Source: Neodothiora populina
Lineage: Eukaryota
Direction: 5' to 3'
NCBI RefSeq assembly: GCF_041146345.1
Contig: NW_027191414.1
Coordinates: forward strand, 1,240,001 to 1,304,000
DNA length: 64,000 nucleotides
Shown here: positions 21,701 to 49,674 of the stretch, piece after piece
Numbering within the stretch: position 1 is the stretch's first letter
Layout: every line of letters starts with the position of its first letter
Position numbers and translations under genes: made by a program
Notes under the pieces: model-generated
The model's database searches: none
What the model was told of the DNA's origin: nothing
The model's input: only the letters and a program-made list of their open reading frames with translations

Positions 21701-22282
21701 CTAAGCGTACTCAAAAGCAGGCAGACCGGTGGATGGTGCAACTCTCCATTGGAATCCCAAACAGTGGTGGGAATTGTCGGTAGTCACGGCGGCAGCGTAT
21801 ACTTTGTATCCATTCTTTACACCTTCAACAGGGCAAGCAAGCCATTCTTGACCTTCAAACTGTAGGCGCAAACCCGCGTTGACAAGTGCGAAGCCAGAAG
21901 TAAGAGAGTGCCTGCCCTTACTGGCAGAGTGAGCAACAGTGAATCGGAGAGCGCCGGTACGGTCAACGTAGACCTCCTGACCGCCAGGGGCCATAACGTC
22001 CAGGGCAAGCTTGTCAACGCCGTTCTTGAAGATAGTGGTATTAGTCTTGCCTAGGCAAGTTGGGAGGGGGCAGTAGGTGGAGGTGCCATAGTTGTTGACA
22101 TAGAAGTATGTGCCGTTTGCATTGATAGTGCCATATTGGATAGGAGAGCCGGAACGAATTGTGATACCAGAAAATGTCTCGTTACCAAGGGTATATCCTA
22201 GAGCGGAAGGGTCCACAGGTGCAGGGGCTGCAAGAGCAGCGGGAAGGACGAGAGCCAAAGCGGAAATAATGCTGGTCATCAT
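21701..22282 (-). CDS. Small secreted cell-wall protein (PhiA/IgE-binding-protein-like)
   Basis: Signal peptide; IRSGSPIQYGTINANG, TYCP, PGGQEVYVD.TGALRFT.AHSA, WLACP motifs. Confidence 0.8.
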   Translation of the reverse strand: MMTSIISALALVLPAALAAPAPVDPSALGYTLGNETFSGITIRSGSPIQYGTINANGTYFYVNNYGTSTYCPLPTCLGKTNTTIFKNGVDKLALDVMAPGGQEVYVDRTGALRFTVAHSASKGRHSLTSGFALVNAGLRLQFEGQEWLACPVEGVKNGYKVYAAAVTTDNSHHCLGFQWRVAPSTGLPAFEYA

Positions 22283-23945
22283 CTTGATTGCTTGTTGAGA
22301 AAGGAGTGCTCGAAGAGGATGTAGGGAGTGTAAGTTGAATCAAGTTCAGATAGTTGGAATTTTTCAACGAAAGAATGACTGATGCAGTGAAGGAGATGGA
22401 TCGAAAAGATAGAGCCAGCCTACCTTAAATACATTGACTCCTCAGTGATTGTAGTAGTCTAGCCAGCCAGCACAGCACCTCCTTCACGTCCTGTTGGTCG
22501 TCGAATTGCAAACATCATGAAGATCAATAAAGTACTGAGAGATGACGGTGAGCATGGTGATCATGTCTGTACTATCGACTTAGGGACGGACTTCGTTCTG
22601 GGGCGTGGCACATAAGGTAATTGGGCAGAAGGAAGGACCGTCACATCTGGGTCAAATTCGGTCATATCATCAGCTGTAGGGCGCAGTATATCGATCACTT
22701 ATCCAACTTCCAGATGTAGAGTGCAACTTCATCGGGTTGATTGATAGCACACTTGTGATTTCGAATGGACATGTAGGCAGTTGACCACTTGCAAGATTTC
22801 GAATAAGTCAATAGCCACTACCTGGTCATTACCACATCGTACATGTCTAATGGAGATTCGTCCTTGCTCGATCGCTGTGAGTGCTTAGGACAAGCAGATG
22901 GGATTGAGGATGCAATTGTTGCGGCGTCTCAAACATGGTCTTTCGGCAGAACAAACAAGTCACCACCCTTAATAAGTGAGATACAATTGTGGGTGCTTGA
23001 ATCGTATGCTGGCTCCCGTTTAAGATAAGAGTGTCAAGAGAGCAAATTCAGAGATAGCCAGTGGACGGTCAGTGGTGTGTCCGGCATGAAAGCGCCAAGC
23101 CAGACCGATCGCTCCTCATAACAAGCTGATTAAGATCAGCCAGAGATCAATGACGAACTTTGCCTTTACGCCTCAGACTGAGCACATAAAAAATCCTTCG
23201 AAGTTCAAATATGCCGCCGAAATACCTGTAGATGACATCGTATCACTTGTGGTATACCTTATCTGCGATCTGCAGTGTAAAGATTGTACATATCACTGTG
23301 ACAGAAGGCAAGATCCTTCCGTGAACGGCTCGAAGCGCAAGCTATACCCTATGCTTTCATGGCCATGAAATCGTACTCATAAGTCAGCCTTACAGAGGCA
23401 GTCTAAGGTACCTTACTTTTCCTGCCCTCATTAATGTTATTCGTCGCCAATGTTATCCTGCAGTGAAAAGACACTCTCAAGGCAAGAGCTACTCAAGCCA
23501 CAATGAAGATTACATATGTGTTGAAGTGTTCATGTGTTCAGACATTGTTGGCGGAGATCAATTCTTTACCGGCATAACGGACTCGCGCCAGTAGTCAATT
23601 GTTCATCGTTCACATGGTAGCCTAGATCGTGGCAGCTTATCGTGCGGCCCGTAAGTGTACTACAGCATTTCTATTAAGCGGACCAACAATCTGCCCTGGA
23701 GAATCTATGTGCACGCGATGGATATCATGAAGGGAGTATTCATGCGCAAGGACAAAGCTGAGGCATCATCGACACCTCTCGTCTTGTGCGGTATCTAACA
23801 GTCGGACCGATTGCACTCAAGTTCAGAGAGAATCTAGAGGATCTTCAATTTGTTGCTAATGTGTATCCTTTCTAGCGAGTCAAGCCGTCTATAGCTATAG
23901 ACTAATATTCTGTAAGCCCATGTCGTTCTTGCCTTGGCCGTCTGG

Positions 23946-26843
23946 CTAAATGCCTCTTTCGGCAAAAATGCGATTCAGGGACTTCTCAAACGTTGCAACA
24001 TTAACGCCCTCATCTAGCATTGTAAAGTGGTCACCAGCGATACGGTGGAAGGTCAACTCATCTGTGAAAACATCCCACTCATGTAGCCAGCCATCCCATG
24101 TCTCATCGGAGATCTTCCACGCTCTGACTGGGGGAACCCAAAAGACCTCGTACTTGGAAACTTTGCCAGAAGGCTCGTAGTCTTTACAGATCCTGCGCGC
24201 AATATTGTTGACGCGGTTCCAATCCTCCATCTTCTCCGCGGTAAGTCCCATGGTTTCGAGGTTGGCGCCTTTGAAGTCTGCAACAATAGCATCGACAACC
24301 TCATCCTCAGGCACTCCTGCATATCTCTCTGTCACCGCCTCGATCTGATCACGAGGGATGACTCTATGATAGGCAAGCATCTCGACCGTGAAAGCTCTCA
24401 GATCTGACTTGGTCAAGATCTTACTGATCCATGGCGGGTTATCGAGGCCACCTACTAGGCCAACTTCGTCCCCGGCAGCTTCAAAACGCTTCGCCAGTTC
24501 GAATGCGGTAATACCACCGAAGCAGAGGCCAAGTAAGATATACGGACCCTTCGGCTGGATATCACGGATGGCCTGTTCGTATATGTCAAGCATGTCTTCC
24601 ATGCTCTCAAACACCCCTTCGGCTCGCTCAAGTCCTTTGGCTCGTAGAGCGTACACTGGACGGTCTGGTAAGTACTTGAGGAGCGGAAGCCAAATCATGA
24701 ACTCGCCTCCGCCGGGTGGCAAAAGGAAGAGTGCCGGCTTCGAACCAGATTGAAGCGTGGCAATTGGCTGATAGATTCCGATCTTGCCAGTCTGCTCAAG
24801 TATAGCTGCCTCCAAGCCTTCGATCGTCCTCGGCTGCAGTATCAAGCTCATAGGGATGGGCGTTTTTGTCATGTTCATTTCCACCTCGATCATACGCTTC
24901 ATGCGTAGATAGGCGATGCTATTCATGCCTGTCTGCATGATCGGAACATTCGCACCAAGCTCCTCCAGGGGCACATCCGTCTCTCGCGAGAGGAATCGTG
25001 CGATCGCAAGTTGAAGTTGCGATGCAAGTGGCTTTAGACCTTCCGCTAGGGGACTTGCCTCCTGGACGCGGTACTGATCAAAGTGGCCTTCGGTATAGAA
25101 CTTCTTCAATTTCTGGCGAGAAAGCTTGCCTATCGTCGATTTTGGCATCTCAGACTTTGGAAGAGGGATAACGGCGACTGGCATTGCGGAAGCGAACATC
25201 AATACTGCCTTGGAGACTTCGCCGATCAGGGTTCGAAGTGACTCTTCATCCGATCGAGACTCGTCAATCGGATTGAAGAGCACCACAACACCCTCAGAGT
25301 TTGACTTCTTGTCCCAGACGGAGAACGTGGCTGTCCAGGTTGGGTTAAGTCCTGGAATCTTTCTGCTCTCGATTGCCTCTTCTAGTTCGAAAGAGCTATA
25401 ATTGTTCCCGTTGATGATCAGAATCTCCTTCGAGCGACCGACTATCTCGAGATGGTTGCCTTCGTCCAGGCGGCCGAGATCTCCGGTATCGAACCAACCG
25501 TCAGCAGTCATGCAACTGTCCGTTGCTTCTTTATTGTTGTAATATCTCTTGAAGACGATGTCGCCTTGAAGTTGGATCCTTCCATCTGAGCCGTGTGGGA
25601 CTGGCTGGAGCCCATCATCAACCACTCGTAAGTCGATGCCAATTGGCAGGCTGTGGCCGACGGATGCGAATAAGTTTCGATGCTCGAGATCCCATTCAGG
25701 TGTTCTCAAATTATAGAAACACGCAGAGCAAGTCTCTGACAAACCATATGCTGCTTTGATAGGATTGCGTCTAGCGCCGTGATCCCGCAATATCTGGTTT
25801 GCGTGATCCATGGTAGACACACGATTGGCCTCGCCACCAACCATGACGACTTTAAGATGGCTAAAGTCATAGCCCTTTCCACGCCGATCCTCGGCCTGCC
25901 AGGATCTGCTTGCGGCAGCAAGGAAGGAGTTGGGAGAAAAAGTATAGCCAATCTTGTACCTGCTGATAATTTCATAGTAGCGCCATGGCTCCTGGACGAA
26001 ATCTCCAGCAGGTACAGATATCTGACTCGCACCAACGTTCATGGCGTTCAGGTGCAACTCGCAGAAATTTGCCGAATGATCGAATGAGATCCACGACATG
26101 AACTTGACGTTTTGGTCTAGGAAATGCATTTTCTTCTTCGCTTGAGCGGAACAGAGCAACTGCCGGTGAGTGAATTCGACAGCCTTCGAATGGCCTGTCG
26201 ATCCACTTGTGAAAAGTAGGACAGCGAGTTGGTCAGGATCATCCAAGTCATTGAGAGAATCTTTTCTGACATGGTGATTCTGTTCCTGCTGTGCATCGAT
26301 GGTCTCGATCGTGTGGACGTGTTCTTGAGGAAATTTCTCGAATTGGGCAGCATTCTTCTCGGAAGTGATGAAGGTAGGAGAGCCGAAGAGTGTTGCAAGG
26401 TTCTCCATTTGACCAGCCAGAGTCTTTGCATCATTAGACTGCCACGGTATCAGTCACTGTTCATCACATCTTCGACAACTCGACCTACCAATGGGCTCAA
26501 GATAGCAGGAACGCTGCCCGCAGCGATCACGCTCCACGTCCAAAGCACATTGTCCCTATGATTCTCGAAATACACCACAACGATCTTGCCTGGTTCGGCA
26601 ATTTCAGCAGCCTTGAGTTTTCCAGCATTGAACTTTGAGGTATCAGCATCCCAACGCTACATGAAATCTTCTCCAGGATTCACTTGCAGTGGCTCGAGAA
26701 AGAAGTTCCGGGTAGGACAGAGTCGTCTCAGGACCATCGAGTCCGTCATCGAGAAAGACCTGGCCTTTCGAGGGATACTCTAATGCTGCCCTTTGCAAGA
26801 GCTGTAGGAGCGTAGCTGGACTTTCGAATGCTTTGAAACCCAT
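23946..26843 (-). CDS. NRPS-like A-T-TE enzyme (about 930 aa; atromentin/aspulvinone/phenguignardic-acid synthetase architecture) with Cys-type TE
   Basis: A domain: FTSGSTGHSK, FDHSA, GGEAN, YGLSET, GWFDTGDLG, GRSKE, PKSTIGK. T domain: GMNSI. TE: PGGGE, GLCFGG, LDNPP, GDHFTML. No C domain. Introns 26633-26687 (GC-AG) and 26439-26488. Confidence 0.93.
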
Positions 26844-29471
26844 AATGACTATGTCTAGCAATCACACAAGGGTAAGGAAAGAACAATGAATCTTTTGGTC
26901 TTTATAGAGAGTCCTTTGCTCACTTTACTAGTCCAACGGAACACGACAGAGGCAAACTATGTTGAGACAGGTAGCTTTCTGAAATAGATAAGCTACTCGA
27001 CCATAGTTGACACCATCCCCAGGATCTCATCACAATGCACACATCCTACATTATAGGACCCTAGACGAAACGAATCAAAGACGTTCGTGTCAGAGATAAA
27101 CCCGAATGGGCCTCCCGAGCATATCCCTGAACGCACGACCTAGAGCGAGACTTAACCTTGCCTCTCATTGGCTTCTTGCTAAGCCTATGTGGGTAAAGGA
27201 CTAAAACTGCCCGCAATGTCCCTGACTTGAGCGGTTGTTCCTGTCGTGGACCCACTTCAATTGACAGCAGTCCACATGCACCATCATCGTGTCTTATCTT
27301 TTGTTTATGAATTGCCATTTCACGTTGCCCGTATCCCTCATTTGGAAGCTTATTGTGGCCATGTACCTCGATCTTCCCGGCTCAATGGGGATCTGCTTAT
27401 CTCGAGAGAGTGTGCTTCGAGGCTGCCAATTGGGTGTGATGGGGGGCCAAATGACGTTAATGATTAATGTCCTTGATCGACAGTCTGGAGGGAGTTCCCT
27501 TGTGATCTCTTGGATAAGTGGGTCCAAAGGAGTTGACTCGGGGGAAGTGGAGTTGCTACCGCCCGCCGTCGCGCCATTATACAGAAAATGTCAATTAGCG
27601 CTTTTGCTTCAATATATTGTAGCTACAAGGGATATGCAAGCACGGTGAACTAAAGCGTACCTTAACGGATTTTGACGTTGATCAGAGCTCAAGCTTCACT
27701 CGGGCCGGGCCGGCGTCACCAATCACCCACCCTGCTACCCCCCACCACTCCTCATGCGTCTTGCTTGTTGAAACCTCCAGCAGTGCTTTGTATCTCTAGG
27801 TACTTTGACACGGGTCATTGTCGTACTCTGCGACAGATCTACAAAATATAGCCATGGAACATCTCTCGGTCTTCGAGACCACATGACGAGGGCTCTTCTC
27901 TGGCCTCTCTGTCAGGACACAAAAGCAAGAAGCCTGCCGATCAGTAGAAAAACAAGTTCTTGGCCGATCGACGTGAGCTGGTGCGAAATCTTATTCAGGT
28001 TCGGTCGGCCTCCTCATCCCAGCGACGTGGTAGCGGAACTATAATGCTGTTGAAGGTGCGCCAAACCAACGATCCTCATCCGTACACAACATTTTGGGCA
28101 AAGTCAGGGCACCGCAATAAATGCGTTTTTGTATCCAAAGTACCGAATCACGTTCAAAGAATCCTTGGTTTGTTGAGATCTGCGCGCGCCCGGCATCCGC
28201 CAGGTTCCCCAGTGGCAGGAAATCGGTCTATTTACTATCGTCAAGGCAGAGGCAGATGATGCAACGTTCCTCAATCTGTTGTCTGGACTGAATCAACGAT
28301 GGCGATTTGCACATCGACGAATTGAGAGTGATTTTGAGACGGCCCCGTCGTTCGAAGACGTGTGTCAGCCTGGAACCGGGCATGTGATTGATTGCGTTTC
28401 ACCACAAGCAGAAAAACACTTCTGTGTCTGGAGGTGCCGGCCAAACGTCCGCTTGCTGCACCCGAGCGTGCGTGCAGGGGTATGCATGTTTCCTGAATTT
28501 CATAAGTGCGCAGCTGCTGCAGGCAGCCGCTTGTTCGGATATATCTTGCAGCTGGAAGCAGCCGATAGTCTGGCGTCTGTGCTGTTCAAGGTGAATATAT
28601 TCTTTGATTATACTGGGGTACCAGACCGTGACTGGGTATTCTAGAATTGGTATTTGCAGCGTAGCGCCCAAAAATTAGCTAGTTCCGATTTTGTTGTTTC
28701 TTTGTAGGCTAAGGTACTGTATATTGTGGACCTGTTTACCGACCAGCATATATAAATCCGAGTCAGTGCTACCGAAAGTTGCCTGACATAGCTATTTAGC
28801 AAACTCTAAAACCATGGAGGATAGAAGGAATCACATCGGGGATTGATTGACATGGGAGGCTGTCGTGGCCCAAGACGGAGACGGATGGGTGTGAAGGCAG
28901 ATCTACGGCTCTTGCTATCAAATTGTGCTTTGATCACGTTAGCCCAATTGTGTTGCGTGATGTTACTTTCCTCTGCATCAATCGCTGATCTGTCTGTCCG
29001 TTTCACTCTGCTTGGTCTGATATGATCAAAACGCGAGTCAAACCTCAACAAATGCAGTGTCTTCCATTTCAGTGAATTCGAACATTGCTCGGAGACTTAA
29101 CGGGTTGGCTCCACTCATGACGGACCCACCGGAACCAGATAGGATGACATTAGTGGGTTCAACGAGAGAGCCACAGTATCGGGATAGATTGGCCAGCAGA
29201 GACTATCAGTGTCGAATCGAAAACACCCTTGGGGAGTCAACCGTATCAACAGCTGCCGTAAGTAGGAGCCGTGGATGCCATATAGTCCCTTCGGACCCCA
29301 GGAGCAGGCGTGGGAGCAGTGCATGCTGGTTCATGACTTTCTTCCTTTACGATATTGATATCTCGAGTTCTCTACGCTATTCAAGACTGTATTGGATTCT
29401 GTATTCTTGACAGATTCGTTAGAGCCTCTCCAAGCCCAACTCTGTCGTTTCGTTCGTCCGACTCATATAAG

Positions 29472-30616
29472 ATGGCTCAGAAGCCTCTAGAGATCTTGGT
29501 TGTCGGCAGTGGGTAAGTTGATGGTTGATGCTACCAGGCTGCGATTCGGGTACTAATGGAAACCAGTGCTGTGGGGTCAATATTTGGTGCTCGAGCCCAG
29601 GGTGCTAGATCCCGGGTCACTGCAGTCTGCAGGAGCAACTATGATGTAGCCGCATCCAGTGGCATTGCAATAAGATCAATCCTCTGGGGCAACAGCATCT
29701 TTAACCCGAATCGGGTGGTGAAAAGCCCATCTGACGTTTCACACGTCGAGTTCGACTATGTCGTCCTCGCAACCAAGCTTGGCAAGCAGTCCAACCGGAC
29801 ATTGGTCGACAGTATTCGTCCTGTGATCAGACCCAAGACGTGCTTGGTGTCAGTGCAGAACGGAATTGATGCGGAGATTGCTTTGCGTCAGGCGTTCAGG
29901 AATCCAGTATTTTCCTCGACTTGCTATATCAGTTGTTCGCAGAAGCAGCCTGGTATCGTTGAACATGTTTCGAGCATCAGACCACACGCTTTCTACATGG
30001 GCATCAATCGTCCCGGTACTCTGTCGAGTGGAGAGAAAGAGCTTGCCTCTTTCGTCAGCTTAGATTCTGCCTTCACCAAGGTGGACGATGCTCATGTAGA
30101 ACGTTGGAGGAAGATGATCTTCAACACCGCATGGAGCCTGTCCACTTCCTTGATGGACTGCAACACTCATGAAGTGCTACGGGATGACTCTGGACTTAGA
30201 CTCGTCTCTGGTCTTGCTCAAGAAGCCTACCGTGTGGGCCGTATGATGGGGATCAATCTTCCGACTGATATTCCAAAATATACTGTGGAGTCAGCAGGCA
30301 AGGCGCCTGCCCTTGTACCATCAATGCTGCAGGACATCCGTGCCGGCAAGCCTATTGAGGTCGAAGCTCTGTGCGGTAAGTGACTTTCAGTGATGGTGCA
30401 CAAGCAGCAATGCTGACAATGTCTCTAGGTGGCATACTTCGAATGGCCAAAGAGAAAGGCATCGACACACCAATCTTGGAATCAATTTACGGATTCCTAT
30501 CGAGGCTCAATGATGATCTCGAGTCTCGCAACAAGGAGCCTATGAGGATTCCTGTCATCCGCCCTGCTTTCAACATTCCTGCTATCGGTTTGAGTTCAAT
30601 TCCTGCCCTTCTCTAG
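29472..30616 (+). CDS. Ketopantoate reductase (PanE/ApbA) family 2-keto-acid reductase, 3 exons
   Basis: ILVVGSGAVG, VCRSNY, FDYVVLATK, QNGI, RWRKMIFN, SMLQD, PIEVEAL. Introns 29513-29566 and 30376-30428. Confidence 0.92.
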
Positions 30617-32238
30617 AACAATGCTGTCTGCTATGTGGCGAGTATGGGGCGCATGAATTATCATAATGACCTGATGGACGTATACGACTGTATTTCACGA
30701 GCTGATTGGCGTATTCATGTTATTACGATGATTCAAATTGATTCTTTACCTATTCTGTGATAACGGTGTGGATCCGAGTGTTGTACAGTAGCTTGGCTAT
30801 CACGCTGTAAACCAGTCAAATGTAGCGACAGAATGTAGCACAAGAGAGATGCCACCGAATTCTGATAAGACAGGAAAGCTTGATCTTCACTCAAAATCAG
30901 CCAATGATGATCATCAATCCGGAAAGACACTAAAAACGAGCACAACACTAGAGATGCGTTCTCTAGCATTTGGGCGACATTCCCTCCGTGGACCTCAAAA
31001 TCGGGACGGTAAACGTCACCGTTAATAATTGCTGCCTGTGTAATTTACCGAATGTGCGCTGGAGCGACGGTATGTCTTACGAAGGAGTGGACAGCTACGA
31101 CATGAGAACCACGTAGCCGGGCGCCAGGCCGGGCCACGGTCCGAATGCTCAACATGCTTGTAGGAAACTCCTCATTGGTGGATGCGAGAGCCCGTGTGGT
31201 TGAGTGATCCACGCGATAAACAGGGGAAGCTTTAATTCGTAGGAGTAAGAATAAGTATAGTAGCCTTAATTCCTAGGCCGCAATATATGAGGTCCATAAA
31301 CTCCGATATTGCCCAGGGTGAAGAACCAACTCGCGCTGCCGATCCACGCTGATCTTTGCATATAAGACGCATATATGCATGTAAGGTTGTAGCTACGCGT
31401 GGGCTACGGAAGTACAGACAAGCTTTAAAGTTAGCTGCGTGTAAGGTTAATTTCAGACCGGTAGTTTTAGACGACCAATATCATCATGGCGGAGCAAAAG
31501 CTTTGCCAGAAGGCACGGAAACCATGCAGATGCTGCCTGACGGCGAGCAGGGGTTCATACTAATGGCTCGCGAAAATCCCCTATCTTTGATGCATTGTGA
31601 TTATCTCGCCATCCAGCTTCCTTCTAGCGTAATAAAACGTGCAGCCAAAGCAGAAAGAGACCCAAAGTCCTAATCTCACATGTGTTGTCCTCTGGCGTGA
31701 TCAGCGGTCGTCAACGCTGTGGTGACTTGCAGCAGAGACAAATTACGTGCAAAGGATTTGCATTACGTAATTCTTCCCCCTCGGTGCAAAGCAAATGTAA
31801 GCCGTATATTCGCCTGATAGTGTTAATCTCGATGGTCTCAGTATCAGGGGGATACATCTTTCCAAGACATAACGATAGAATTTGGTGATCCGACGGATTA
31901 CCGACCACCAATGATATACTCTTGATCATGTCGAGACTTGCTGATATCATTGCACACCACCTGGATCTGCTCTTCTATCAATATTTCATGATAGCAGAAT
32001 GGTTTACTTTGATGCTACTGCACATCTTGGCGCCATGTGGTGACAGTGCAACAGCACTCATATGCTTCACTGACTGTTGCTTGTGTCATGTGAATGTCCG
32101 GAGGTCGTGCAGGAACATATGTCCTAGCTGTGATTGTCAGGCAGCCGCTGCGCAGTTGGGTGTCTGATCAACACATGCCATCTGCTCTTCAGCAGGTCAA
32201 GCAACTAGTGTAATGACTCGCGCATCGAATCGGCGAGC

Positions 32239-34266
32239 TCAACTGATAGCTGCCTGGTCCTCCTCAACCTCGAACACTGTCGCCTGGCGGACGCCACAAC
32301 GTTCACCAACATTGTTGAGCTGTCGATCTATCCACCTCTTCTGCTCCGTCGATATCTCATCCGAGGTCCTGGCTACACGAAGCGGCCAATGAAGCAGGTA
32401 GCCAACTACCAGATCTACCGTGTGATTCATCTCTTCGTCGCTAGAGTTCAGGTGCTCCCCATTCCGCTTTCCCCAACGGAAATGCAATGGTACGCTAGAG
32501 CATATTTCATCTGTAGCCCGCTGCTGAATATAGGTAGCATGGCGATATTCCTCCTTCTGAGAGTACCCGACTGGATACATCCACATGATCCCTGTGGTCA
32601 TGATCTTAGCAGCCAGTATCCGGCATGAATGTATCTTGTTCAGTGCACTGGCGACGTAGACGTCTCTGTAGTCGTATACGGGTCCCACCCATGCAGTTGC
32701 TGTGTCAATATCCTCCGGCAGGTCGGCGATATAGCCTATTGTGCGAGGTCTAAATTCATCTGGTAGTTTCGTATCAGCCATGGCCTTTTCTACCTGGCGT
32801 GCTCTGCCGACCAAGGCCTGCATGTCTGAAAGAGCTTCAGTATCGGGCGCATGTCGCATTATCTCCTTCTGTATTTGCAACAAGGTGGGAAGCTCTACGG
32901 CATGATGCATGAGATCATGGACAGGATCACGATAATCGTATGTGCCGAGATGTGTATCACTGAGCCACCCTCCTTGTTCCGGAAAATCTTCTGGAGCCGT
33001 CCCTGAGCGCAAACAATTGATGAACTGCGCCGATCGTCAGCTCCGTCTCAACAGACTTTCTGCTCTTCTAATATCGTGCCACGTACCATTTCTGTTCTGA
33101 CTTGGCGGAATAAAACCAGCCCCAGGGGATCATGGAACTGAGACGAACCGCGCATTTTCAGTATTGCCGCAGCTCCATCAATGTGACTCGACCATGCCCT
33201 CATTGATCCATCCGAGGCATTTATAGTCTAGATATCTAATGTCAGTTCTATACTCACAGAGATCCACTCCATGCAGCTGGTAAGTGCTACCAGAGCGCCC
33301 GAAGTCGAACTCACCTCGTACCAAGATAAGACCAATGCGGCAAGGAGGGTCTCATCCTTCTGTGCAAATGTAGTATCTAGAAGCGCCGTAGACATTGTCT
33401 TTATTGCCTTGCCATAGGCAAGGGCGGCCTGATGCTGTAGTATCCTCTTGCTTGAAAGCATTGAAAGTGCACTCAAGGCCACAGCATGAAGAGACACTCG
33501 CAAAGGTGACCCTTCGGAAGATGCCTGGTACAATGGAGCCAACGCATGCAAGATATTGTGTCCATCATCATAACCGACGCCATACATTGTATCAAAGTTC
33601 TTAAAGCATATGTTCACAGCTTGCTATGGTTGGTCAGTGAACAGTTAGGCATGATGCTTGAGGGAATTCGTGAACCTCTTGTATTGACAGCCAAGGCGGC
33701 GGTCTAATAGATTCAGATGAGGAATACACCCTCAGCTGGCCAAATCGCGACTTCAGTTCCCGAGAAACATCATCGGAGGTGAAGGACTGCCTCCTGCGAA
33801 CGAGTGCTGTTGATGTCCCACTGCTTTCTTCATCACATTCTGCTGATTTTGGTAACCTTTAAAGTGTCAACTTCTCGATACGAGACTCGCACAACATACC
33901 ACCACTTGAAGTCATAGTTGACATAAGAAAAAGAAGGCCACTGCATACCGTGCATTAAAAGCCTTTGACTGTGGCCTCTGCTTCTTAGGGAGCTGTTGCT
34001 TTCGCTTCACAGCCTCTGTTTGGTTTCTGAAGATTACGTCCGAATAACCTGGACAGACTCGCGATGTTTTCACACACTGGTAGCAAGAAGGCTTGCCTTC
34101 GTCACACTTATAATGGTCAGCAAAGAGCACTACTCCGTAAACATGCATATAGTCACCTTTATCTTCCTGGTTTTACAGGTTTGACAAGCTATGTAAGGTA
34201 GGTTAGTCAAGAGACCGACGCCGTAGACTAGGTCGCACCTTTGCTTGGAGCCCCAGTCCGTCCCAT
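32239..34266 (-). CDS. Zn2Cys6 transcription factor, multi-exon
   Basis: MGRTGAPSK-ACQTCKTRKIK-CDEGKPSCYQCVKTSRVCPGY; middle region YGKAI...DETLLAALVL; C-terminal EICSSVP...GYLLHWPL. Confidence 0.88.
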
Positions 34267-34671: not shown

Positions 34672-36369
34672 CTAAGGCCCTTTCTTTCTCCACCGCAGAT
34701 TGCCGCCTACCCCAGCAACCCCAGACACGCTTGTGCCCCCGAAGACTGCGGTGAAATGTTGCTGTGCATCTTCACAGAGATTATGTCGTTCCTTCCATTC
34801 TGCAATCTTGCTTTGCAGTGCACATCCAGTAGCGACAAGTATCTCCCAGACAATCTTCTCGACATCGAATCCGAACTTGTATATTAGGTTATCGCGCGGC
34901 CCCCAAACCCGAATGTGGGCTTCGGTGGACGAGTCGATCAGATCACCTTCGTTGACAAGGTGACCTGCATTCATCTTGGGCGTGTTCGCATGTAGAAATG
35001 CTGGTCGCACTATTGCCTCGTCTGGGCTCATTTCACGAACTGTCGAGTTTCTCCCCTCAGACTTGCGTTCCTCTGTCTGTTGTGGCTGCGACACGGCGGC
35101 AACCGAGCCCCGGAAATCATCGAATGGGTGATACTGTATCATGCCGCTTCCCTTTTCTAGCCCACCAGACTGCCTCGATACTGACTGGACGTGCTTACGA
35201 ACACGGTACCAGGGTTGTCCAAGCACGGTCGCTGCAGCAAGGAACGTCTCCTTGTCACCTTGACCGAGTGCACCTTGACTAAGCAGGGGATAGTAATACG
35301 CAGGCCCATAGATGTTGTAATAATTGGCGAGGAGCAGCGTCTTGAGATGAGTGTGTTTGTTGATTAGCAATTGTCCCGCCTCACTAGAGCTCTTCGGTAG
35401 AACACCTTCTGGGTAGGCAGGAAAACCAGCTATTGACCAAAATAGAGGGGACTCTGTAGCCTGCCAGAAGTCAGGCCAAATCACTAGACCGGTGGTAGTA
35501 TAAGGCTCGTGTGGAAACATGTCGGTCGCCGGATCGACGAGAGGTATGCTGTCGCTATCAAGGTAAAGAACATGTGCAAAAGAGCAGAAGAGCATAGCGA
35601 GGGACTTCAATTGGTAGTGCGTGACTTCGAAGCCATTCTTCCGGTTTCGAGCGCTGTCTTTCTCTCTTGACCTGACACGGCTGTTCAACGACCGTCGTGC
35701 TCTCAGTGCTCGAATGCCTTGTCCAGCGTCAAGATAGTCTGTGATGATCAAGCACTTCGCTCCCAGCAATGGTAGATACTGTTCGCACAAGTCCTTTTCG
35801 TACTCTTCCGAAGTTGCTACGAAGATCTCGACCGGAAGCGTGCTGCCGGATTTGCGCAGCATGTGCAACCCAACTATAGCAGGACCAAAGTACTCCCCGC
35901 CGCCGACGACGACAACTCCAGTGCCATTGAAAACACTGCTCCCATTGGCGTCCCAATGCGAGTCCATAGACTCGACAAACTTGGCGTGCGCCGATTGCAA
36001 AGAGGCAATATGTGATTTGTCGCTACTGACGCGATTATGATCTGGGGAGCGGAGGCTGAAATCATCGTCTGCTACCGGAACGTGCGCCGCGTTAGAGCTC
36101 AGTCGAATCTTTGGGACATCTGGTCGTGCGTCTTCGAATGCCTTGCTCCAAAATTGCCACAATTGCAAGACGGATTCAGGCTTAGAACTGACAGGCCGCG
36201 GAGACACATCATCAGAATCAGGGTGCGAGGGTGATGTCGCCTTCAACGATGAGATACCCTCGTGGACCGCTGCCGGCGCATGCACAGACAATGCAAAAAA
36301 GGATAGCAGAAGGCATACGAGGGCGACTACGGAGAGATAGCGCACCCAGCGCAGACTAGATATCATCAT
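34672..36369 (-). CDS. Alpha-1,2-mannosyltransferase, MNN2/MNN5 family (GT71)
   Basis: Type II membrane anchor; GVVVVGGG, SGSTLPVEIF, LYLDSD (DxD), WPDFW, SSEAGQLL, GDKETF, FLHAN.PK. Confidence 0.9.
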   Translation of the reverse strand: MMISSLRWVRYLSVVALVCLLLSFFALSVHAPAAVHEGISSLKATSPSHPDSDDVSPRPVSSKPESVLQLWQFWSKAFEDARPDVPKIRLSSNAAHVPVADDDFSLRSPDHNRVSSDKSHIASLQSAHAKFVESMDSHWDANGSSVFNGTGVVVVGGGEYFGPAIVGLHMLRKSGSTLPVEIFVATSEEYEKDLCEQYLPLLGAKCLIITDYLDAGQGIRALRARRSLNSRVRSREKDSARNRKNGFEVTHYQLKSLAMLFCSFAHVLYLDSDSIPLVDPATDMFPHEPYTTTGLVIWPDFWQATESPLFWSIAGFPAYPEGVLPKSSSEAGQLLINKHTHLKTLLLANYYNIYGPAYYYPLLSQGALGQGDKETFLAAATVLGQPWYRVRKHVQSVSRQSGGLEKGSGMIQYHPFDDFRGSVAAVSQPQQTEERKSEGRNSTVREMSPDEAIVRPAFLHANTPKMNAGHLVNEGDLIDSSTEAHIRVWGPRDNLIYKFGFDVEKIVWEILVATGCALQSKIAEWKERHNLCEDAQQHFTAVFGGTSVSGVAGVGGNLRWRKKGP

Positions 36370-37058
36370 GGCAGCAATGGCGATGAACTATCTACGCACT
36401 CTGCGCTTATCATATTACTAGCCCTCAGTCATCAAGACTATGGGGTGCGTTGAGGAAATGTTCGTTCACTGATTTGAAGGGAGAAATTGTATATCAGTTG
36501 TGGCCGGTGGTTGTGCTGACGTACATCTCTAGGGCTTACTGAAGGAGACCAAAGCTTTGACTTCGCGAGTATTGAACGTTATGTGTATAACCCTTAATCG
36601 TTATCAATACTTATCGTAAGTCTTCTCACTACGTGACGTCCATAATGATGTTTGGTCTAGCTTGGCGTAGGGTGCGATAGTATTCCATGCTGATAAGTTG
36701 CATCAATATCGATAGATGTGTCTAGAGTTGTGTGTTTGTGGCATCGTTGCCTAAGGTTCTGTTAGGCAACCGGGCCTTATTATGCACGAAAGCCTCAAAA
36801 TCGTGATATTTCTGACGAACGACGGAAAGCCCGCAAGCTCATCGATATCATCAGACTTAGCATTGCTCTTGTTATATATCGCACACGCTGTCCGCCCTCG
36901 AACTTACGTGACGTGATCTACTTACTAGGGGTCAAATAGAAGTCGACATCCAGGGATCTACTTTCATCCATGATTTCTGAACTACAGTCATGCGACAGCG
37001 GCGATAAATCATCGTCTTGTATTACTGTAGTCGGTTCAAATCGATTAGCAGAGGATAG

Positions 37059-38026: not shown

Positions 38027-39670
38027 ATGACGTCCATTTTCCAAGACACCTTATTTGGTGTATGCGCGCGATTCGTCACTCGGGGTAAGGTCCTTGGTTG
38101 GCAGGAGAATCATGATGAAGACCTTCGACTGCGATATATTTATGGAGACGAAAAAAGGTCTTCTACCTCGTCAGATGAATTAGAGAAAGGTCAAGACCAT
38201 AGACTGATCGAGTTTCTCGAGAATGACCCTCAGGTATGACTATGAAATGTGATGTTGTTGCAATATGCAATGGCGTGGCTGACTCCCGACCAGGATCCAC
38301 AAAATTGGTCTCTGCGCAAGAAGATCTTCGTCACTTTCAACATCTGTCTTCTGACGTTCTCAATCTACATTGGATCTGCTATCTACACCTCTGGACTTAT
38401 GGGCATCACACAAACATTCGGCATCTCGCAGACGGTAGCAATCCTTGGTCTGACTTTGTATGTTCTTGGATACGGCCTGGGTCCCATGATCTGGTCTCCA
38501 ATCAGCGAGATTCCATACTTTGGACGTAGTCCAATTTATCTGGGCACCTTGTTCGTCTTCGTATTCTTCAACTTTGGCGTGGTTTACGCGCAGAATCTGG
38601 GCATGCTTCTTGCATTCCGTTTCTTGACTGGTTTCTTTGGCAGTCCTGTTCTTGCTACTGGAGGTGCCAGTCTAGCAGACATGTACACGCCCAACAAGCG
38701 TGCTTACCCATTCGCATTCTACGGCGTGGCAAACGTCATGGGACCTACCGTTGGACCTCTTATCGGTGGATTTGCAGCCCAGTACAAGGGCTGGAAGTGG
38801 CCGATCTGGGAGCTGATCTGGCTTTCCGGTTTCTGCTGGGTCTTCCTATTCTTCTTCTTTCCCGAGACCTCGGCGGCGAACATCCTTTATCGCAGGGCTG
38901 CTCGACTGAACAAACTCCAGCCTCAAGATGGACCTCAACTCAAGTGCCAGGCACAGGTTGAGGCCGAGAAGATGACGCCAAGCGAGGGCATGAAAATGAC
39001 CTTTGTCAGACCATTTACCCTCACTCTGACGGAGCCCATCGTCTTCTTCCTCAACCTGTACATTGCACTCGTCTATGCAGTCCTTTACTGCTGGCTAGAG
39101 TCCATCCCTATCGCATTCACCGAGGTCCACGGCTTCAGCCTTGGCATCACGGGACTATGCTATCTCGGCATCGCCGTTGGAGCAGTCATCACGGTCCCAC
39201 CTTACTGCATCTACAACTACTATTTCGTCGAGCACAGATTCAACGACAAGCTCGAGCTCAAGCCCGAGATCCGACTCGAGTCGGCCCTCGTCGGCTGCTT
39301 TTGTCTGCCCATCTGTCTGTTCTTCTTCGGCTGGACCGCAAAGGAAAACATCCACTACATTGTGCCCATCATTGCCACCGCCTTCTTTAGCATCGGCGCG
39401 TTCTTATCCTTCTCGAGTGTCCTGAACTACCTCGGTGACGCCTACCCGGATTACATCGCTTCCATCTACGCCGGCAATGATCTCTTCAGATCGGCGTTTG
39501 GTGCCGGTTTCCCTCTTTTCGCGAATCAAATGTTCACCACTCTTGGTTTGGACTGGGGTAATAGCCTGTTGGGCTTCATCTCCATCATCTTCATTCCCAT
39601 CATTTACTGGCTGTGGTGGAAGGGCGAGTCCATCCGCAAGCGAAGCAAGAGAGCTAGACACGACTTGTAG
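38027..39670 (+). CDS. MFS drug:H+ antiporter, DHA1 family (Flr1/Mdr1/Caf5-like), 2 exons
   Basis: DPQNWS, GSAIYT, WSPISEIPYFGRSPIY, FRFLTGFFGSPVLATGGA, PETSAANIL; about 12 hydrophobic segments; intron at about 38234-38293. Confidence 0.93.
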
Positions 39671-40150: not shown

Positions 40151-42775
40151 TCACATGGCAGGCCAGCTACCAACGCCCATATTCATCGTCCAGCCAATAT
40201 AGCTATTCTGAGCCAGATCGTCGACGAAGCCTTGCCAGTTCATCCACGAGTCGTCCATCTGGCCCATGCTGAGGTCGTAGTCCATCGGTAACGTCGAGGC
40301 AGGCTCCCCGTCGGTCAAGGAATCGGTTGGTATCGAGGCCGGCGTCGTCGACACCATGGATGCGAACAGGTCGAGGTTGGTGGACATGGCCGTTGTGGTG
40401 GACGTCATTGGTAGTTCTTGCTGCTGCTGCTGCTGCTGCTGCTGCTGTGTGTTAGGCTGGTAAGCTTGTGCTTGGCTCGTGGCAGCTTGCATTTGGGCCT
40501 GGTGCATGGCTCTCCGACGCCGAGCCATGCGCATTAGTTTTCGGATGGGTTTCCATAGTCCTCCATTGGCTCCCTCGGCCACTTTTACTGCAACGTACTC
40601 GAAGTTGGATTCTGCTGTTCGCCATGCACGTTCTACGAGCTCTGTATTTTGGAGTGACGAGGAGCACAGCTCTGCGAGAACGACGGCTAGGGAGTGCCAA
40701 TTGACGTATGACTCGAACATCCAGTGCCAGCAGTGCGTCGTCTCATTGCTGAATGTTCTCTTGAGCTCAAGGGTTTCCGTTGCACTCAGGAGTATATTCA
40801 CTGCTCCTGGTGGTGGTGGTGTCATGGCTGGATGACGCTGCAAGGGCCGCACAACGGACAGCCATAAACCAGAAATGATGATCTTGCCGAGGCAGAATGC
40901 GGCATATTGGATGTCTTGAGTCAAGTCGCATTTGGACAAGAATTGTTGTGTCAAGTAGGCATCGAGCCGCCGGACAGCTTCTTGTCGTACTTCCCAAGAC
41001 TGTTGTATAGGTCGCGGAGGAGCGTCATTGTCTCGAACCTGCTACGCATTAGCTGGAGTTGTACGGCGCGAGTATGATGGAACAACGCGTGCGGAATGCG
41101 GTCACAGTCAACACAGTGCAATGAGTACATCTCTTATACCGATGATCTGGCGCCGAAGACAAGCTTGATGGAGGTAACTCACTGGCACAAAGTTCAGTTC
41201 GCGAAGCAGATACTGAGCTTCACTAGCTATCACTGTGAAGGTGGTGTCGGTAAACTCGTGTTTTCTCGATGGCGGCTCGGTGGTACCAGGGCCGAAATCG
41301 GCATCATTGATGTCCTCCAGGCATTTGGTGTTGTAGCCGTTGCTGGGTATGCACGAGTCGGATCCTCTGTCGGAGGCAGCTTGGTAGTCCAAAGCCAGCA
41401 GAGAAAACCAAGCTCGACGGTAAATCTGCCCCTGATAGAACGTGAGAGTCGCATAAGACTCCTCTCGATGCAGCTGTAATGCTATGGCTATGCGAGAGGC
41501 CAAGCCCATCAACGTCCATGACTGCGGTCCGTTGTTGTGGGTTCTGATCGCGCTCTACATGCCCGCGTGTCAGTTCCATGGATTCTTCTTGCCACTTACA
41601 TCCACTTGTACGTACCACGTAAAGAACCAAACCTTGTAGATATACGATGCTGTGATTGTTAGCCATGCCGATGATCTGGAAATTGCGCTCCATAATCGCA
41701 CGCCATTGGTTGCTAATGACTTCTTTCTGCTCTCCAAAGTACGCCAGGCATTCTTCTTCATTACAAGAACATACTGTTGTGTAGAATGCGGCAGCTCTCA
41801 AGAACCGGAACGTGCTACTCCGAACCGGGAATCCGAGGTAGGGGTCCCCATTTCCTGCAGATCGTTCAAACGTCGGCAAATGGAATATCTTGAACACTGG
41901 ATCTACATGGCGTTTGTATATATTCAGATACTGGCGGATGTTTTGACTCGACAAGAATTCTGATGGGTCTTCTTTGTAGTCATCGGACTGGAGAGGGAGA
42001 TCAATCGCTGCGCTGTCTTCCTGCGAGGCGAGATCAGGAGGACTGTTATCAATTTCATCCTCGTCATCTCGGCTTTCGAGTACATGGCGAAGCCCATTCA
42101 GCTACGTTAAGATGTTAGCCGAAACAAAGGCAAAGTCTTGAAACATGCTTCACGCAGAGCTGACAATTACATCGCGATGATTTACATAAGTCTCTCTCAC
42201 GAAGCATTGTGGATTTGCATATCACGAGAATGATCAGGTCAAAAGCAGCCCATCGGACCGGCATATTGCCCATCGCGCATAGGAATAAGAGTGGATACAA
42301 CACACCACAAAAAAAGAAACGCCCTTACCTCATTGCTCAATTGGGTCCAGACTGTGGATCCTAAGAGGCGACTAATATCAGTGTCGCCACTGCTGCTGTG
42401 ACTTTTCGAGTTGCTGTTGCCGGGCGACGAAGTAGAAGTGGCAGGTGAGTCGGGCTTATCATGAAGGACGAGTTTCGCAATATCGTGTGTAGCAGATGAA
42501 TTGTTAGTACTGCTGAGTGACGAGACCAATTCCTCGAGTTTCTTCACGCGCAATCGCAGTTCAGTGTTGGCCTCTTTCCTGCCACCGCGACGGCCGCGCG
42601 GGAGTCGTGGTCGAACCACCGGAGTACACTCTTTGCCTGCCTTGCTGCAGGCGCCACACGGCTGTCGTTTGTCGCATCGGATCTTGCGCTTGCTGCATAG
42701 TTCGCAGGACAGAAGCGCTACGCCGGGTGGGTTTGCATCTTTCTTTTTCTCCGCACTATTATATGGATCCTCCAT
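40151..42775 (-). CDS. Zn2Cys6 transcription factor with fungal-specific TF domain and polyQ tail
   Basis: SCELCSKRKIRCDKRQPCGACSKAGKEC; HVDPVFKIFHLP; GLASRIAIALQLH..RRAWF; WHSLAVVLAELC. Confidence 0.9.
40421..40447 (-). repeat. (CAG)9 repeat encoding polyglutamine
   Basis: (ctg)9 on the + strand within the TF C-terminal region. Confidence 0.9.
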
Positions 42776-43230
42776 TTGTGACACGCGCGTATAGTATGCG
42801 CGTAGATGATGATGGTCTGTTGGTTACGATGCGTCACACCAAACTAATCCTTAGGACGCAATAGCCCTCTTGTAAAGCGAGACGCCCTTCGGAGAAACAC
42901 TAAGATGCTGATCCGAGGAGTTGCGACATGGATCCATACAGCAAGAATACACAGCAAGTACACTTAGATACCTAAGGCAACAACGTGCAAGGGCAAGAGC
43001 CTTTCTTCGACTGGAAAGTCAATCCGCTTCTACCGTAGCAGAAGCATACTACTAGTAATTCGGCTGAGAGCCAGACATTACCAGCAGAAAATTACGGGTA
43101 TGGCCTCAGCTTCGATCGAGCGCGGATGGTGACGTCTACTATAGGTTCACGCTAACCGTTTTTCGAAGCTTCGATCGTGCCTGCCACGGCCGTGCTCATT
43201 CACATGGCAGTCAAGCAGTAAGCCATTGAT

Positions 43231-43253: not shown

Positions 43254-43372
43254 AACAGCGTTATACTTTCTTCTGTGTGGAAAACACGTCATTCATGTGA
43301 TATATCCATTCTCTATATGGGATGTCTATATGAAGCAAAACATTCGTGTAACAGGTATAAGACCTAGCGTGC

Positions 43373-45044
43373 TCATGCCTTGAAGCCCATTGCCTGCCAC
43401 TCGGCGTTGACCTTGGCCTTGACCTCCTCAGGATACGAGTTCTTAAAGTCCGCAGCCACCCAGTTTGCACCTGTAGTGTACTCGACAGGCATCAGTGCAT
43501 CGGACACGACCTTACCACCCTTCACTGGGCTGTGCGCTCCGTGACCGTTGTAGGGAATGAGAGGGAAAGCTCTGACATCAGGGAAGAAGGTTTCGTCGTC
43601 GTTAGGGCGGCAACGAGTGGTGAAAGCCCAGATGACATCCTTGAAGTCAAACACATCGATGTCATCACCGACCAACACAAGTCTGTGAATGGTGTATCCG
43701 ACCTTGTGGTTGAAGACGAGATCACCGATCTTCTTGGAGAAGTCCTTCGAGTTGGTCTTCATGGCACGCAGCTTGGCAGTGTCAATCTTGAGTGCCACCC
43801 AGGTGACCTGAGATTCGAAGTTTGACATGGCTTCGACGACAGGCAGATCATTATCTTGACAGAGCTGGCGGATCTCAGCTGCTGCAAGGGGTCCAATCAT
43901 GGTGTGCTATGGTTCTGTTAGTGCAAAGGTTTTCACAAGATCGCAATCAGGAACTTACCGTCTCATCGGTCAATCTACCACATGCTGACACGGGCATGAT
44001 GGGGTCATCACGGTGAGTGATAGCGTTGACGGTGTACTTGGGGCATTGGTGAGCGTCACCAGGGAAAACGTAACCGTGCATCTCTCCGAAAGGACCTTCG
44101 GGCGCAGTCTCGGTGACGGACAGAGTACCCTCGAAGACAATCTCACTGTTGGCAGGAACCTTCAAGTTGTTGGTCTCACACTTGACAAGATCGAGCGCAG
44201 TGCCAGTCATGGCTCCAATGTACTCGGACTCGGTCACGCCGTCCGGAAGAGGCATCGAAGACGCCATGATGGCAGCAGGCGGCACTCCAAAGCAAAGCGC
44301 CCACGGCACATCCTTGCCCTCCTTCTTCCACATCTCCTTGACCTGCCAGATATGCTGAGGCTCGATTACGAGTCCAACCAGGTGGCGCTTGTCGTAGATC
44401 ATGGCGCGAGCAATCGACCAATTCGTCCACTTGCCATCCGGGGATTGCACAACGTGCATGCCATACGTCTGAATATATTTTCCGCCATCATCCTGGTGGA
44501 TCAAAGGGGTAGGAAGCTTAGTGAGATCGATGTCGTCTCCGAAGATCTTGTTCTCTTTGCAAGGTCCGCTTTCGACAAGGTTAGGTGGCAGCGGCGTCGA
44601 CTTCTTTGCAGACAGCATCTTGTCCAGGATTTCCTTCATGCCGGCCGTTGGGGGCAGTGCGAGGTGTCTAGCCAGACGACCGAACCGCGTAGCCTTGTCA
44701 AATCTCAGCGCAGCGGGTGCGCCAAGAATACGGAAAAGTCCATCCTGGTTGCCCTTGACGTTGTTGAACAAAGGAGCCTTGTCGTCCGTCTCGTATACTT
44801 TACGGATAATGGCCGCGACCTCGAGGTTAGGGTCCTTTTCGTCATTAATTTCGACCAAGTCGTTATCTTCTTTAAGCGCCTCGACGAAAGACCTGAAGTT
44901 CATATGAGGTAGGTCCTGTCCGCTAGACGAGCTGTGGTAGCTCTGGACCGCACGCTTCGGGGTGAATGTTGATGACATGATGTTACGTCTCGCCAATGCT
45001 GTGGTTCTTAGTGATGTGTTGAGTCTAGGCAGTATAGTCTGCAT
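43373..45044 (-). CDS. FDC1: Ferulic/cinnamic acid decarboxylase (UbiD family, prFMN-dependent), 2 exons
   Basis: [54 protein letters not shown]; one intron at about 43907-43959. Confidence 0.95.
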
Positions 45045-45625
45045 AATTTATATCCAATGTCCAATGTTCAGTAAGAAGGTGACTACTTGGACAATCACTA
45101 CAATAGAATAGATAGATAAACAACAAAATCAAAACAAAAAGCCGGGATCGCGCGACTATCTATATACTCGTACCTTCTACGAACCGATGATGATCAGTTA
45201 AACATAGACCCTGAGACACCATTGCACAAAAAAAGTCCATGTCATGCCATGTCAGAGTGCCCGAACTACCTTGATGTCCCTTGCACTACCACTCCACTCC
45301 ACCGCCAGCCCGCCCGCCTGCCCGCGAACCCCCAAGTCCCGAATACAACGATGAAAGACCTGCTAGACTACCCCTCGTATGTTCCTAGGTAAGGTACAGT
45401 AGTCTCCAGCACTTCCCACACGTACACGTATGCGCGCGCGCGGAAGTCCCGGATGAAGCGGTGCGGTAACGCAACATACTTACAAGATAGCAATAGTGCG
45501 GCAGCTCCAAGAAACGAACACTGCTTCTGTACGGAGACCAACCGTAAACCGCGTATCCGTTCTGGTCAGGAGAGATACTGTGATTACTACTATTGGAAAG
45601 AAGGCCATGATCTGCCACTAACATC

Positions 45626-45663
45626 TCTCGGCGCTTCGGGGTCTCGGCGTCTCGGCGTCTCGG
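45626..45663. promoter_or_regulatory. Array of five CGG triplets at 8-bp period in the FDC1-PAD1 divergent promoter (candidate Zn2Cys6 sites)
   Basis: CGG at 45629, 45637, 45645, 45653 and 45661; four of them within TCTCGG. Confidence 0.45.
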
Positions 45664-46187
45664 ATGGGGATCGTCTCCAGGGGCAAATACGCTACCTGAA
45701 TATTGCGTAGCGGAGATCAGACGACTCTCGCGCGGGGCCAATCTCCTATTTCCCTTACTGCGGATCGCGAGAGCGACGAAGTAGGAGAGGCCGCGGCCCC
45801 GAATGTCCTGCCTGTCATTAGTGTGTACGGAGATCTGGCATTGACCATGGCGAGTCGGGGAGGCGGCGGCGCATTGGTTTTGTCTTTTCTTTTTGCATTC
45901 TTGCGGCCGTTCAGTTCGTCATAGTGGTCTTGGGTTGTTGGAGTGTGTTTTGGTTAGGTGCTTGGGAGATGCAGGAGGACTGGGGAAGGGATATAATTAA
46001 TTGTGTTCTCGCCTTTTCTTTTAATTGTTTTTTTGTTACGCATGGTCTGGCATCTATATCTCTGTATCTACCCTCTTCCCTATAGCATTTTACAAAGATA
46101 ATCAACGAGGCACCGAAGGGATTGAAGCTTTTTCATATTCTTGAGATAGAGGCACTAGAGCATTGGAGAAGAAGACCACAAGGAATC

Positions 46188-49400: not shown

Positions 49401-49674
49401 TTTTCGTGCTTGTGGGCTCACATGTTTTAGGTACCTGTATCATTGATAGCGAAGGTACAAGTACTGTGGGGGATGAACAAAAGTCCGGGGTGGGTGGTTT
49501 GGAGTGTATTCGGCTTGCCAAGACTTTGGGGTGGCGTTTATGAAGTCTATACCATTATTTAACCATAGCTAATTACGCTTCATGCTCTAGGACGGTTCAA
49601 GACTGACATTGAATTACGAAACATTCTTTTTTTTAACTGCTTTTGACCCAAGTATCAGCGTTGAATATCGACCC

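Follow-up and report, generated by a model that had tools for sequence, protein, structure and literature searches.

A 64,000-base stretch of the Neodothiora populina genome (NCBI RefSeq assembly GCF_041146345.1, contig NW_027191414.1, positions 1,240,001 to 1,304,000; hereafter the window) carries a nonribosomal peptide synthetase (NRPS)-like gene of adenylation-thiolation-thioesterase (A-T-TE) layout and, facing away from it, a gene for a PanE/ApbA-family 2-keto-acid reductase. These two genes form a conserved unit that is widely kept among fungi, and the synthetase belongs to a distinct A-T-TE clade. What might such a pair make? Our preferred reading, to which we give a probability of roughly 55%, is that the reductase makes a D-2-hydroxy acid, which the synthetase would activate and join through ester bonds, the simplest product being a depside dimer or a cyclic dilactone. 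An ester made from hydroxy acids is the probable product because the genes are kept together in distant fungi and because the active-site residues are unusual.

The window lies on a contig (C15 in our numbering) of a 24-Mb fungal genome, where the three proteins discussed here bear the database names AAFC00_006038, AAFC00_006039 and AAFC00_006040. Their genes and the associated features are as follows:

26843-23946, minus strand: NRPS-like A-T-TE gene AAFC00_006038; 930 aa in 3 exons (26843-26688, 26632-26489 and 26438-23946)
26687-26633, minus strand: first intron of the NRPS-like gene; predicted to be non-canonical GC-AG, with the junction as in the database model P0001
26844-29471, no strand: divergent intergenic region of 2628 bases; presumed shared promoter
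29472-30616, plus strand: PanE/ApbA-family 2-keto-acid reductase gene AAFC00_006039; 345 aa, with exons at about 29472-29512, 29567-30377 and 30431-30616
34266-32239, minus strand: Zn2Cys6 transcription factor gene AAFC00_006040; 544 aa in 7 exons

A first-pass annotation, made from the DNA letters, had proposed three genes of these kinds in this order as a mini-cluster. The proteins (P0001, P0121 and P0279) were mapped exon by exon onto the window and all three genes proved intact, while Pfam identified AMP-binding, PP-binding and Thioesterase domains and no condensation domain in the NRPS-like protein, ApbA and ApbA_C in the reductase, and Zn_clus and Fungal_trans_2 in the Zn2Cys6 protein. 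The description of the enzyme genes as head-to-head across 2.6 kb is correct, since their start codons point apart across the 2628 bases, and the Zn2Cys6 gene is the direct neighbor of the reductase gene, the two lying tail-to-tail with about 1.6 kb between them. The reported lack of an aminotransferase, prenyltransferase or tyrosinase nearby also agrees with our Pfam scan, which found none in 48 selected window frames that cover short exons partly. The synthetase is single-copy in the genome; the next match has 27% identity over part of the A domain.

How widely is the pair kept? Of 8000 candidates scored in the synthetase search, 239 reached E <= 1e-50, and the best 120 of these were listed; of the reductase searches, one had all 57 of its matches listed and the other the best 120 of 184. 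As a proxy for linkage of database proteins we used a longest contig of identical size, with one representative per cluster and one contig size shown. At least 31 of the 120 listed synthetases, the window pair included, have a longest contig of the same size as that of a listed reductase. Seen from the reductases, a same-sized synthetase contig was found for 31 of 111 clade members versus 0 of 44 more distant ApbA proteins. The pair has consecutive accessions in Paraphoma (two strains), Cercospora zeina, Aplosporella, Saccharata and Polychaeton, and in Parastagonospora nodorum it is SNOG_03620/SNOG_03621. Accessions are 2 apart in a Quercus-labelled record and 3 apart in Diplodia corticola; two Logan pairs, which have no accessions, lie on common contigs of 70286 and 8217 bases. 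Neighboring locus tags could be read from the protein names in Plenodomus lingam, Boeremia exigua, Ascochyta rabiei and Cercospora berteroae, bringing to 12 the named species in which the pair's accessions or locus tags are adjacent or at most 3 numbers apart. Synthetase and reductase genes are thus neighbors across Pleosporales, Botryosphaeriales and capnodialean fungi.

Metagenomic sequences give the same picture. Among the 80 loci kept, four contain a full-length clade synthetase, and in 4/4 the reductase is head-to-head with it, the two matches being spaced by 0.8-1.4 kb; a fifth locus, L032, is too short for judging linkage. The genes flanking the pair in these loci differ from those of the window and between lineages, and of the window frames of at least 80 aa only those of the synthetase and reductase match the four loci. 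Their DNA has no significant similarity to the divergent intergenic region, whose longer frames gave no Pfam match. Partner distances are correlated in a Mantel test (r 0.86, 33 pairs; 0 of 999 permutations reach r), a correlation that is expected from shared descent and is no proof of shared function. Loss of linkage in related genomes, which the first-pass annotation had named among the outcomes that would count against its mini-cluster, was therefore not what we saw in the 12 species and four loci. The enzyme genes stand as a conserved unit, whereas the Zn2Cys6 gene was not seen to recur as a third member.

The residues of the synthetase set it apart from its best-known relatives. Its A domain has Ser222 at code position 1 (the equivalent of GrsA D235), Gly332-Leu333 in place of the amino-acid-type Gly-Pro, and Lys538; the carrier serine is Ser607. 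The thioesterase (TE) triad is Cys739-Asp766-His904 with a GLCFGG nucleophile elbow, and in alignments with solved TE domains Cys739 falls on the nucleophile, in agreement with the earlier description of the enzyme as a Cys-TE. Across the clade, code position 1 is Ser in 100/100 informative rows (124 rows, 24 of them fragments not covering the site), while it is Val in both A-T-TE control loci (L033 and L034). The TE nucleophile is Cys in 123/124 clade rows and Ser in both controls; the exception, P0075 from Fusarium phyllophilum, has Ser both at code position 1 and as its TE nucleophile, branches beside the controls and outside the clade, and is possibly an intermediate. The motif could be aligned in 115 of 155 distant loci, and 62 had it in the [DE]H form; among these 62, Val or Ile occupies the position in 54 and Ser in 1. 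The Gly-Leu backbone is present in 114/114 informative rows, giving the clade the StsA-like loop without Pro.

What do these residues imply? Characterized keto-acid dimerizing A-T-TE enzymes have a Ser TE nucleophile. The window synthetase shares their domain layout and departs from them in lacking Val at position 1 and in having Cys739 as nucleophile. Ser222 aligns with McyG V227 and StsA I306, which are the GrsA D235 equivalents of those enzymes (PMC11253843). Val at code position 1 marks keto-acid enzymes (PMC10316625), and a smaller residue, Ala or Gly, occupies the D235-equivalent position of hydroxy-acid A domains (PMC11253843). Cysteine thioesterases perform unusual strained-ring closures in ObiF and SulM, and the uncharacterized AB3403 TE likewise has Cys (PMC10510592). 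The derived specificity code is S-A-(C or E)-F-M-G-A-S-A-K; position 5 is Met, or Phe in 24 rows, and fits published rules poorly (PMC10316625, Fig. S1 legend). An aromatic side chain is favored because the remaining pocket resembles those of the controls and McyG. The residues in which the synthetase departs from the keto-acid dimerizing enzymes would suit a hydroxy-acid substrate and an ester product.

The reductase has the attributes of its family: a Rossmann domain with a helical C-terminal domain, an intact GxGxxG motif, and the catalytic residues Lys84, Asn112, Lys196, Asn200, Ser266 and Glu278. The clade keeps the equivalents of PanE Lys72, Asn98, Lys176, Asn180, Ser244 and Glu256 (111 rows), and the catalytic roles of such residues in PanE and in KIVR, the family member of the beauvericin cluster, are described in PMC3478992. 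An AlphaFold model with a pLDDT (predicted local distance difference test) score of 86.9 finds PanE-family structures, D-mandelate dehydrogenases among them. The protein passes the cut-off of the TIGR00745 apbA_panE subfamily (172 vs 141 bits) and lies below every equivalog cut-off. Is it the housekeeping enzyme? Searching its own genome for ApbA proteins gave 12 matches; besides the window gene, these comprise two weak ones and seven further family loci, two of which were matched twice. One of the seven, L004, has E. coli PanE as its best PDB match and Asn at the positions of PanE 194 and 241, residues that we take to hold the C4 hydroxyl of pantoate. At the same positions the window reductase has Thr214 and Leu263, which sets it apart from a housekeeping PanE/PAN5 enzyme, and its clade has Thr in 105/111 rows at 194 and Leu, Ile, Met or Val at 241. 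In a FastTree phylogeny of 153 rows (the trees gave long-branch warnings and leave out reductases below 230 aa and synthetases below 820 aa), a single clade of 102 rows (support 93) gathers the linked reductases; the seven other copies from the same genome all lie outside it, and the Alternaria protein AFT12-1 lies inside it on a long branch. Since the genome has seven other family loci, one of them PanE-like, the reductase is best regarded as a specialized copy and not the housekeeping one, and the first-pass concern that it might be the sole pantothenate-pathway copy falls away.

From the chemistry of its family, the reductase would reduce a free 2-keto acid, presumably drawn from ordinary amino-acid transamination, to a D-2-hydroxy acid at the expense of NAD(P)H. 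The pocket residues suggest that the A domain would then adenylate this acid and load it onto the arm of carrier Ser607; an aryl-lactate (phenyllactate or hydroxyphenyllactate) is a somewhat likelier substrate than a branched-chain acid. The TE may hold one unit as a Cys739 thioester and join it through an ester bond, most likely to the 2-hydroxyl of a second unit, giving the depside dimer or cyclic dilactone. A keto acid, which would yield a saturated dioxolanone, or an outside alcohol would be a less likely partner. We favor hydroxy-acid and ester chemistry because of three independent features: the fixed partner belongs to a family that reduces free 2-keto acids, the keto-acid Val is lost, and the TE would keep its unit activated at the thioester level. 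There is a precedent for such supply: fungal depsipeptide synthetases use free hydroxy acids made by separate reductases (PMC3478992).

Several points weigh against this reading. The chemistry of every step is deduced from sequence. The A domain retains the Gly-non-Pro loop form, and it is through a backbone of this kind (G414-M415 type) that StsA selects keto acids (PMC11253843). Ser is not a published marker of hydroxy-acid domains: the examples cited have Gly and Ala at the D235-equivalent position, and McyG keeps Val (PMC11253843). In a bacterial locus, L143, the loader next to an ApbA reductase is of the Val type. The contrast with PngA, MelA, MicA, TdiA and AtrA rests on a published statement for Val and on general background for the Ser thioesterase, and the controls are two loci. 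As for linkage, 89 of the 120 listed synthetases have no same-sized reductase contig, although they are to be counted as untested rather than unlinked, because many are on short contigs or are cluster representatives from other samples. Of the 10 pairs looked up, 8 were picked for same-sized contigs already seen and 2 by species label, and the four full-length metagenome loci represent two lineages only.

Could the synthetase still condense two 2-keto acids into a furanone, dioxolanone or quinone core, with the reductase acting later, either on the product or on a unit still bound to the carrier? Its domain layout is that of the known A-T-TE enzymes, databases automatically name its relatives after PngA, MelA, MicA and TdiA, and the conserved Gly-Leu backbone is of the keto-acid type. 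Phyllosticta species, moreover, carry the clade members P0042 and P0043; no Phyllosticta reductase is among the matches listed. Under this alternative these synthetases could give rise to guignardic-acid-type dioxolanones, and the genes behind the Guignardia dioxolanones had yet to be found in 2017 (PMC5566483). We nevertheless regard keto-acid condensation as unlikely, as Val at code position 1 is lost and the TE Ser is replaced by Cys clade-wide. PanE-type reductases bind the free 2-keto carboxylate (PMC3478992), a group missing in most dimer cores, and phenguignardic acid is made by PngA alone, without a reductase (PMC5566483). The automatic names scatter over four enzymes, and SNOG_03620 shares no more than 33% identity with TdiA and AN3396 (PMC4205913). 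Somewhat less likely still is that the pair is a portable acyl-donor module, whose TE passes its acyl unit on to a larger acceptor that other genes supply, or that its substrate lies outside the amino-acid-derived keto acids. The varied neighbors would suit a portable module: L029 has genes for an A-T-acyltransferase and an ATG22-like transporter, L031 has the same transporter type, and L028 and L030 have an M28 peptidase gene. So would AFT12-1 (P0254), an oxidoreductase of the Alternaria alternata AF-toxin cluster (PMC6989435), which is a clade reductase within an ester-type toxin cluster (PMC6989435, PMC8102738) and, at 42% over 274 aa, the nearest annotated relative of the window reductase among the matches listed. 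However, no third enzyme gene is common to the window (frames of at least 80 aa) and the four loci; AFT12-1 is weakly placed on its long branch, has no tested role in the passages on it, and has no Alternaria A-T-TE counterpart among the 120 listed synthetases.

Two further accounts fare worse. If the reductase worked on ketopantoate, the pair would give a pantoate-derived product or back up pantothenate supply, and indeed the protein passes the TIGR00745 cut-off and has structural neighbors titled ketopantoate reductase. Against this stand its failure at all equivalog cut-offs, the seven other family loci, and the Asn residues at PanE 194 and 241 that L004 has and the clade has replaced; we consider it improbable. 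Least probable by far is that the two genes are chance neighbors with unrelated roles. With about eight ApbA-family loci in this genome, one beside a biosynthetic gene is not rare in itself, but linkage extends over several fungal orders and involves one reductase clade only (31/111 vs 0/44), while the flanking genes change.

Does the Zn2Cys6 gene belong to the unit? It may have been recruited locally. That it is a pathway-specific regulator of the pair in the Neodothiora lineage, making a three-gene cluster there, is possible yet doubtful. The gene is intact and directly adjoins the pair, and it appears to be a lineage-restricted duplicate, its nearest orthologues having 48-49% identity. CGG/CCG triplet pairs (e.g. 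27701-27713) lie inside the divergent intergenic region, candidate sites at most and uncorrected for chance occurrence. On the other side, no homologue was found in 4/4 related loci, where the flank beyond the reductase is about 8, 8, 0 and 5 kb, and none of the top 10 Zn2Cys6 matches has a listed contig of the same size as any listed for the synthetases. A paralogue with 36-38% identity lies on contig C3 (G000:C3:1748339-1750010, L190) and is a closer match to Aureobasidium and Taxawa proteins than the window gene is. We rejected the Aureobasidium protein P0284 as an orthologue, as it has 47-63% identity to the C3 paralogue versus 33-37% to the window gene. We set aside a Zn2Cys6 motif scan of the four loci as weak, since the known Zn2Cys6 gene of the window, split by introns, escaped it.

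The pair resembles a hybrid of two known systems, the A-T-TE dimerizing enzymes and the combination of KIVR with a depsipeptide synthetase. TdiA, AtrA, MelA, MicA, PngA, AcyN, AlfA and RalA have the same A-T-TE layout, at about 930-970 aa, and likewise a non-amino-acid A domain without Asp235 and with a Gly-non-Pro loop. The clade differs from TdiA-type enzymes in having Ser for Val at position 1, Cys for their TE Ser, and a fixed ApbA reductase partner, the window gene also lacking an aminotransferase neighbor. KIVR, from the beauvericin cluster of Beauveria bassiana, and KivRFp of Fusarium proliferatum belong to the reductase's family and are clustered with a synthetase; KIVR has the same catalytic Lys, Asn, Glu and Ser (PMC3478992). 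In contrast, their partner is a cyclodepsipeptide NRPS and not an A-T-TE enzyme, and KivRFp is 52 kDa versus 345 aa for the window protein, a comparison made by description. The parallel with KIVR drawn by the first-pass annotation therefore survives as a family-level analogy and not as demonstrated orthology, because no KIVR-named protein is among the matches listed.

By both sequence and fold, the best solved relatives of the synthetase are the A domains of McyG and StsA (PDB 4R0M and 6ULW/6ULX). The ring-lining McyG residues W272, A333, G335 and S341 correspond to F267, A330, G332 and S338 of the synthetase. McyG and StsA differ in that they start bacterial assembly lines and have Val or Ile at position 1; in StsA the keto acid is reduced by a built-in ketoreductase domain of another family. 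The natural starter of McyG is phenyllactate. In L143 (3769-12564), an ApbA-like reductase, the Val-type A-T loader, a transporter and a condensation-adenylation-thiolation NRPS lie in one run, together with a DAHP-synthase-like gene called from sequence motifs; the run suggests an aryl-lactate starter unit.

The literature that we searched, in which subscription journals are thinly covered so that an earlier characterization is possible, contains no description of the synthetase-reductase pair. SNOG_03620 (P0052) is a clade member with 43% identity to the window synthetase, and its neighbor SNOG_03621 is a clade reductase. It and a Leptosphaeria homologue were reported as orphan A-T-TE genes with no known product (PMC4205913), and the word 'pantoate' was not found in the searched text of that paper. 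SNOG_03620 is thus previously known as a gene, and not as part of a pair or by function. According to a 2025 paper, no non-reducing NRPS-like enzyme had been reported outside aromatic keto-acid substrates (PMC12105029). We suggest tentatively, at somewhat less than even odds, that the clade is a widespread fungal A-T-TE branch that has switched from C-C dimerization of aromatic keto acids to Cys-TE ester formation from D-2-hydroxy acids supplied by its own reductase.

If true, the window would encode a depside or lactide synthetase that works without a condensation domain, it would be the first A-T-TE enzyme beyond the reported keto-acid scope, and one product type would be common to many plant-associated fungi. 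Orphan genes such as P. nodorum SNOG_03620 would gain a function, as would homologues in Plenodomus, Ascochyta, Cercospora, Diplodia, Phyllosticta, Cladosporium and lichen fungi. The pair, two genes that should be easy to express, is a candidate for the first exception in substrate range, with two named residues open to testing, and a minimal enzyme that ester-joins chiral hydroxy acids would be useful in biocatalysis.

Some clade members are scattered: P0067, P0075, P0079, P0085, P0106 and P0112 come from Beauveria, Fusarium, Clonostachys, Penicillium and Sarocladium, and the 120 listed synthetases include none named as Aureobasidium, Alternaria or Aspergillus. This distribution may reflect patchy loss or transfer. 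When species genomes were scanned for a bacterial origin, the 80 loci kept included no close relative at full length (the best segments have 22-33% identity), which is not evidence of absence. Several of the relatives' automatic gene models mis-splice the 5' end of the synthetase or begin at its last exon. Beside the reductase, L029 carries the A-T-acyltransferase (TRI101/BAHD-like) gene and the ATG22-like transporter gene at 1432-4897 and 5656-7770; the same transporter type occurs in L031 (2270-3855), and an extended cluster in this lineage is possible.

In the window itself, the Zn2Cys6 gene is followed by a Mannosyl_trans3 glycosyltransferase gene (34672-36387, minus strand) and a major facilitator superfamily (MFS) transporter gene (38246-39670, plus strand), neither of which has a homologue in the four related loci. 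Downstream of the synthetase, 21701-22339 (minus strand) encodes a small protein with a hydrophobic N-terminus and no Pfam match at the cut-off; we take it to resemble PhiA-type cell-wall proteins. About 9 kb from the Zn2Cys6 gene, a UbiD-family gene and a flavoprotein gene face apart at 43361-47072, presumably an Fdc1/Pad1-like aromatic-acid decarboxylase unit, and are bracketed by Zn2Cys6 genes at about 40151-42823 and 47356-49439.

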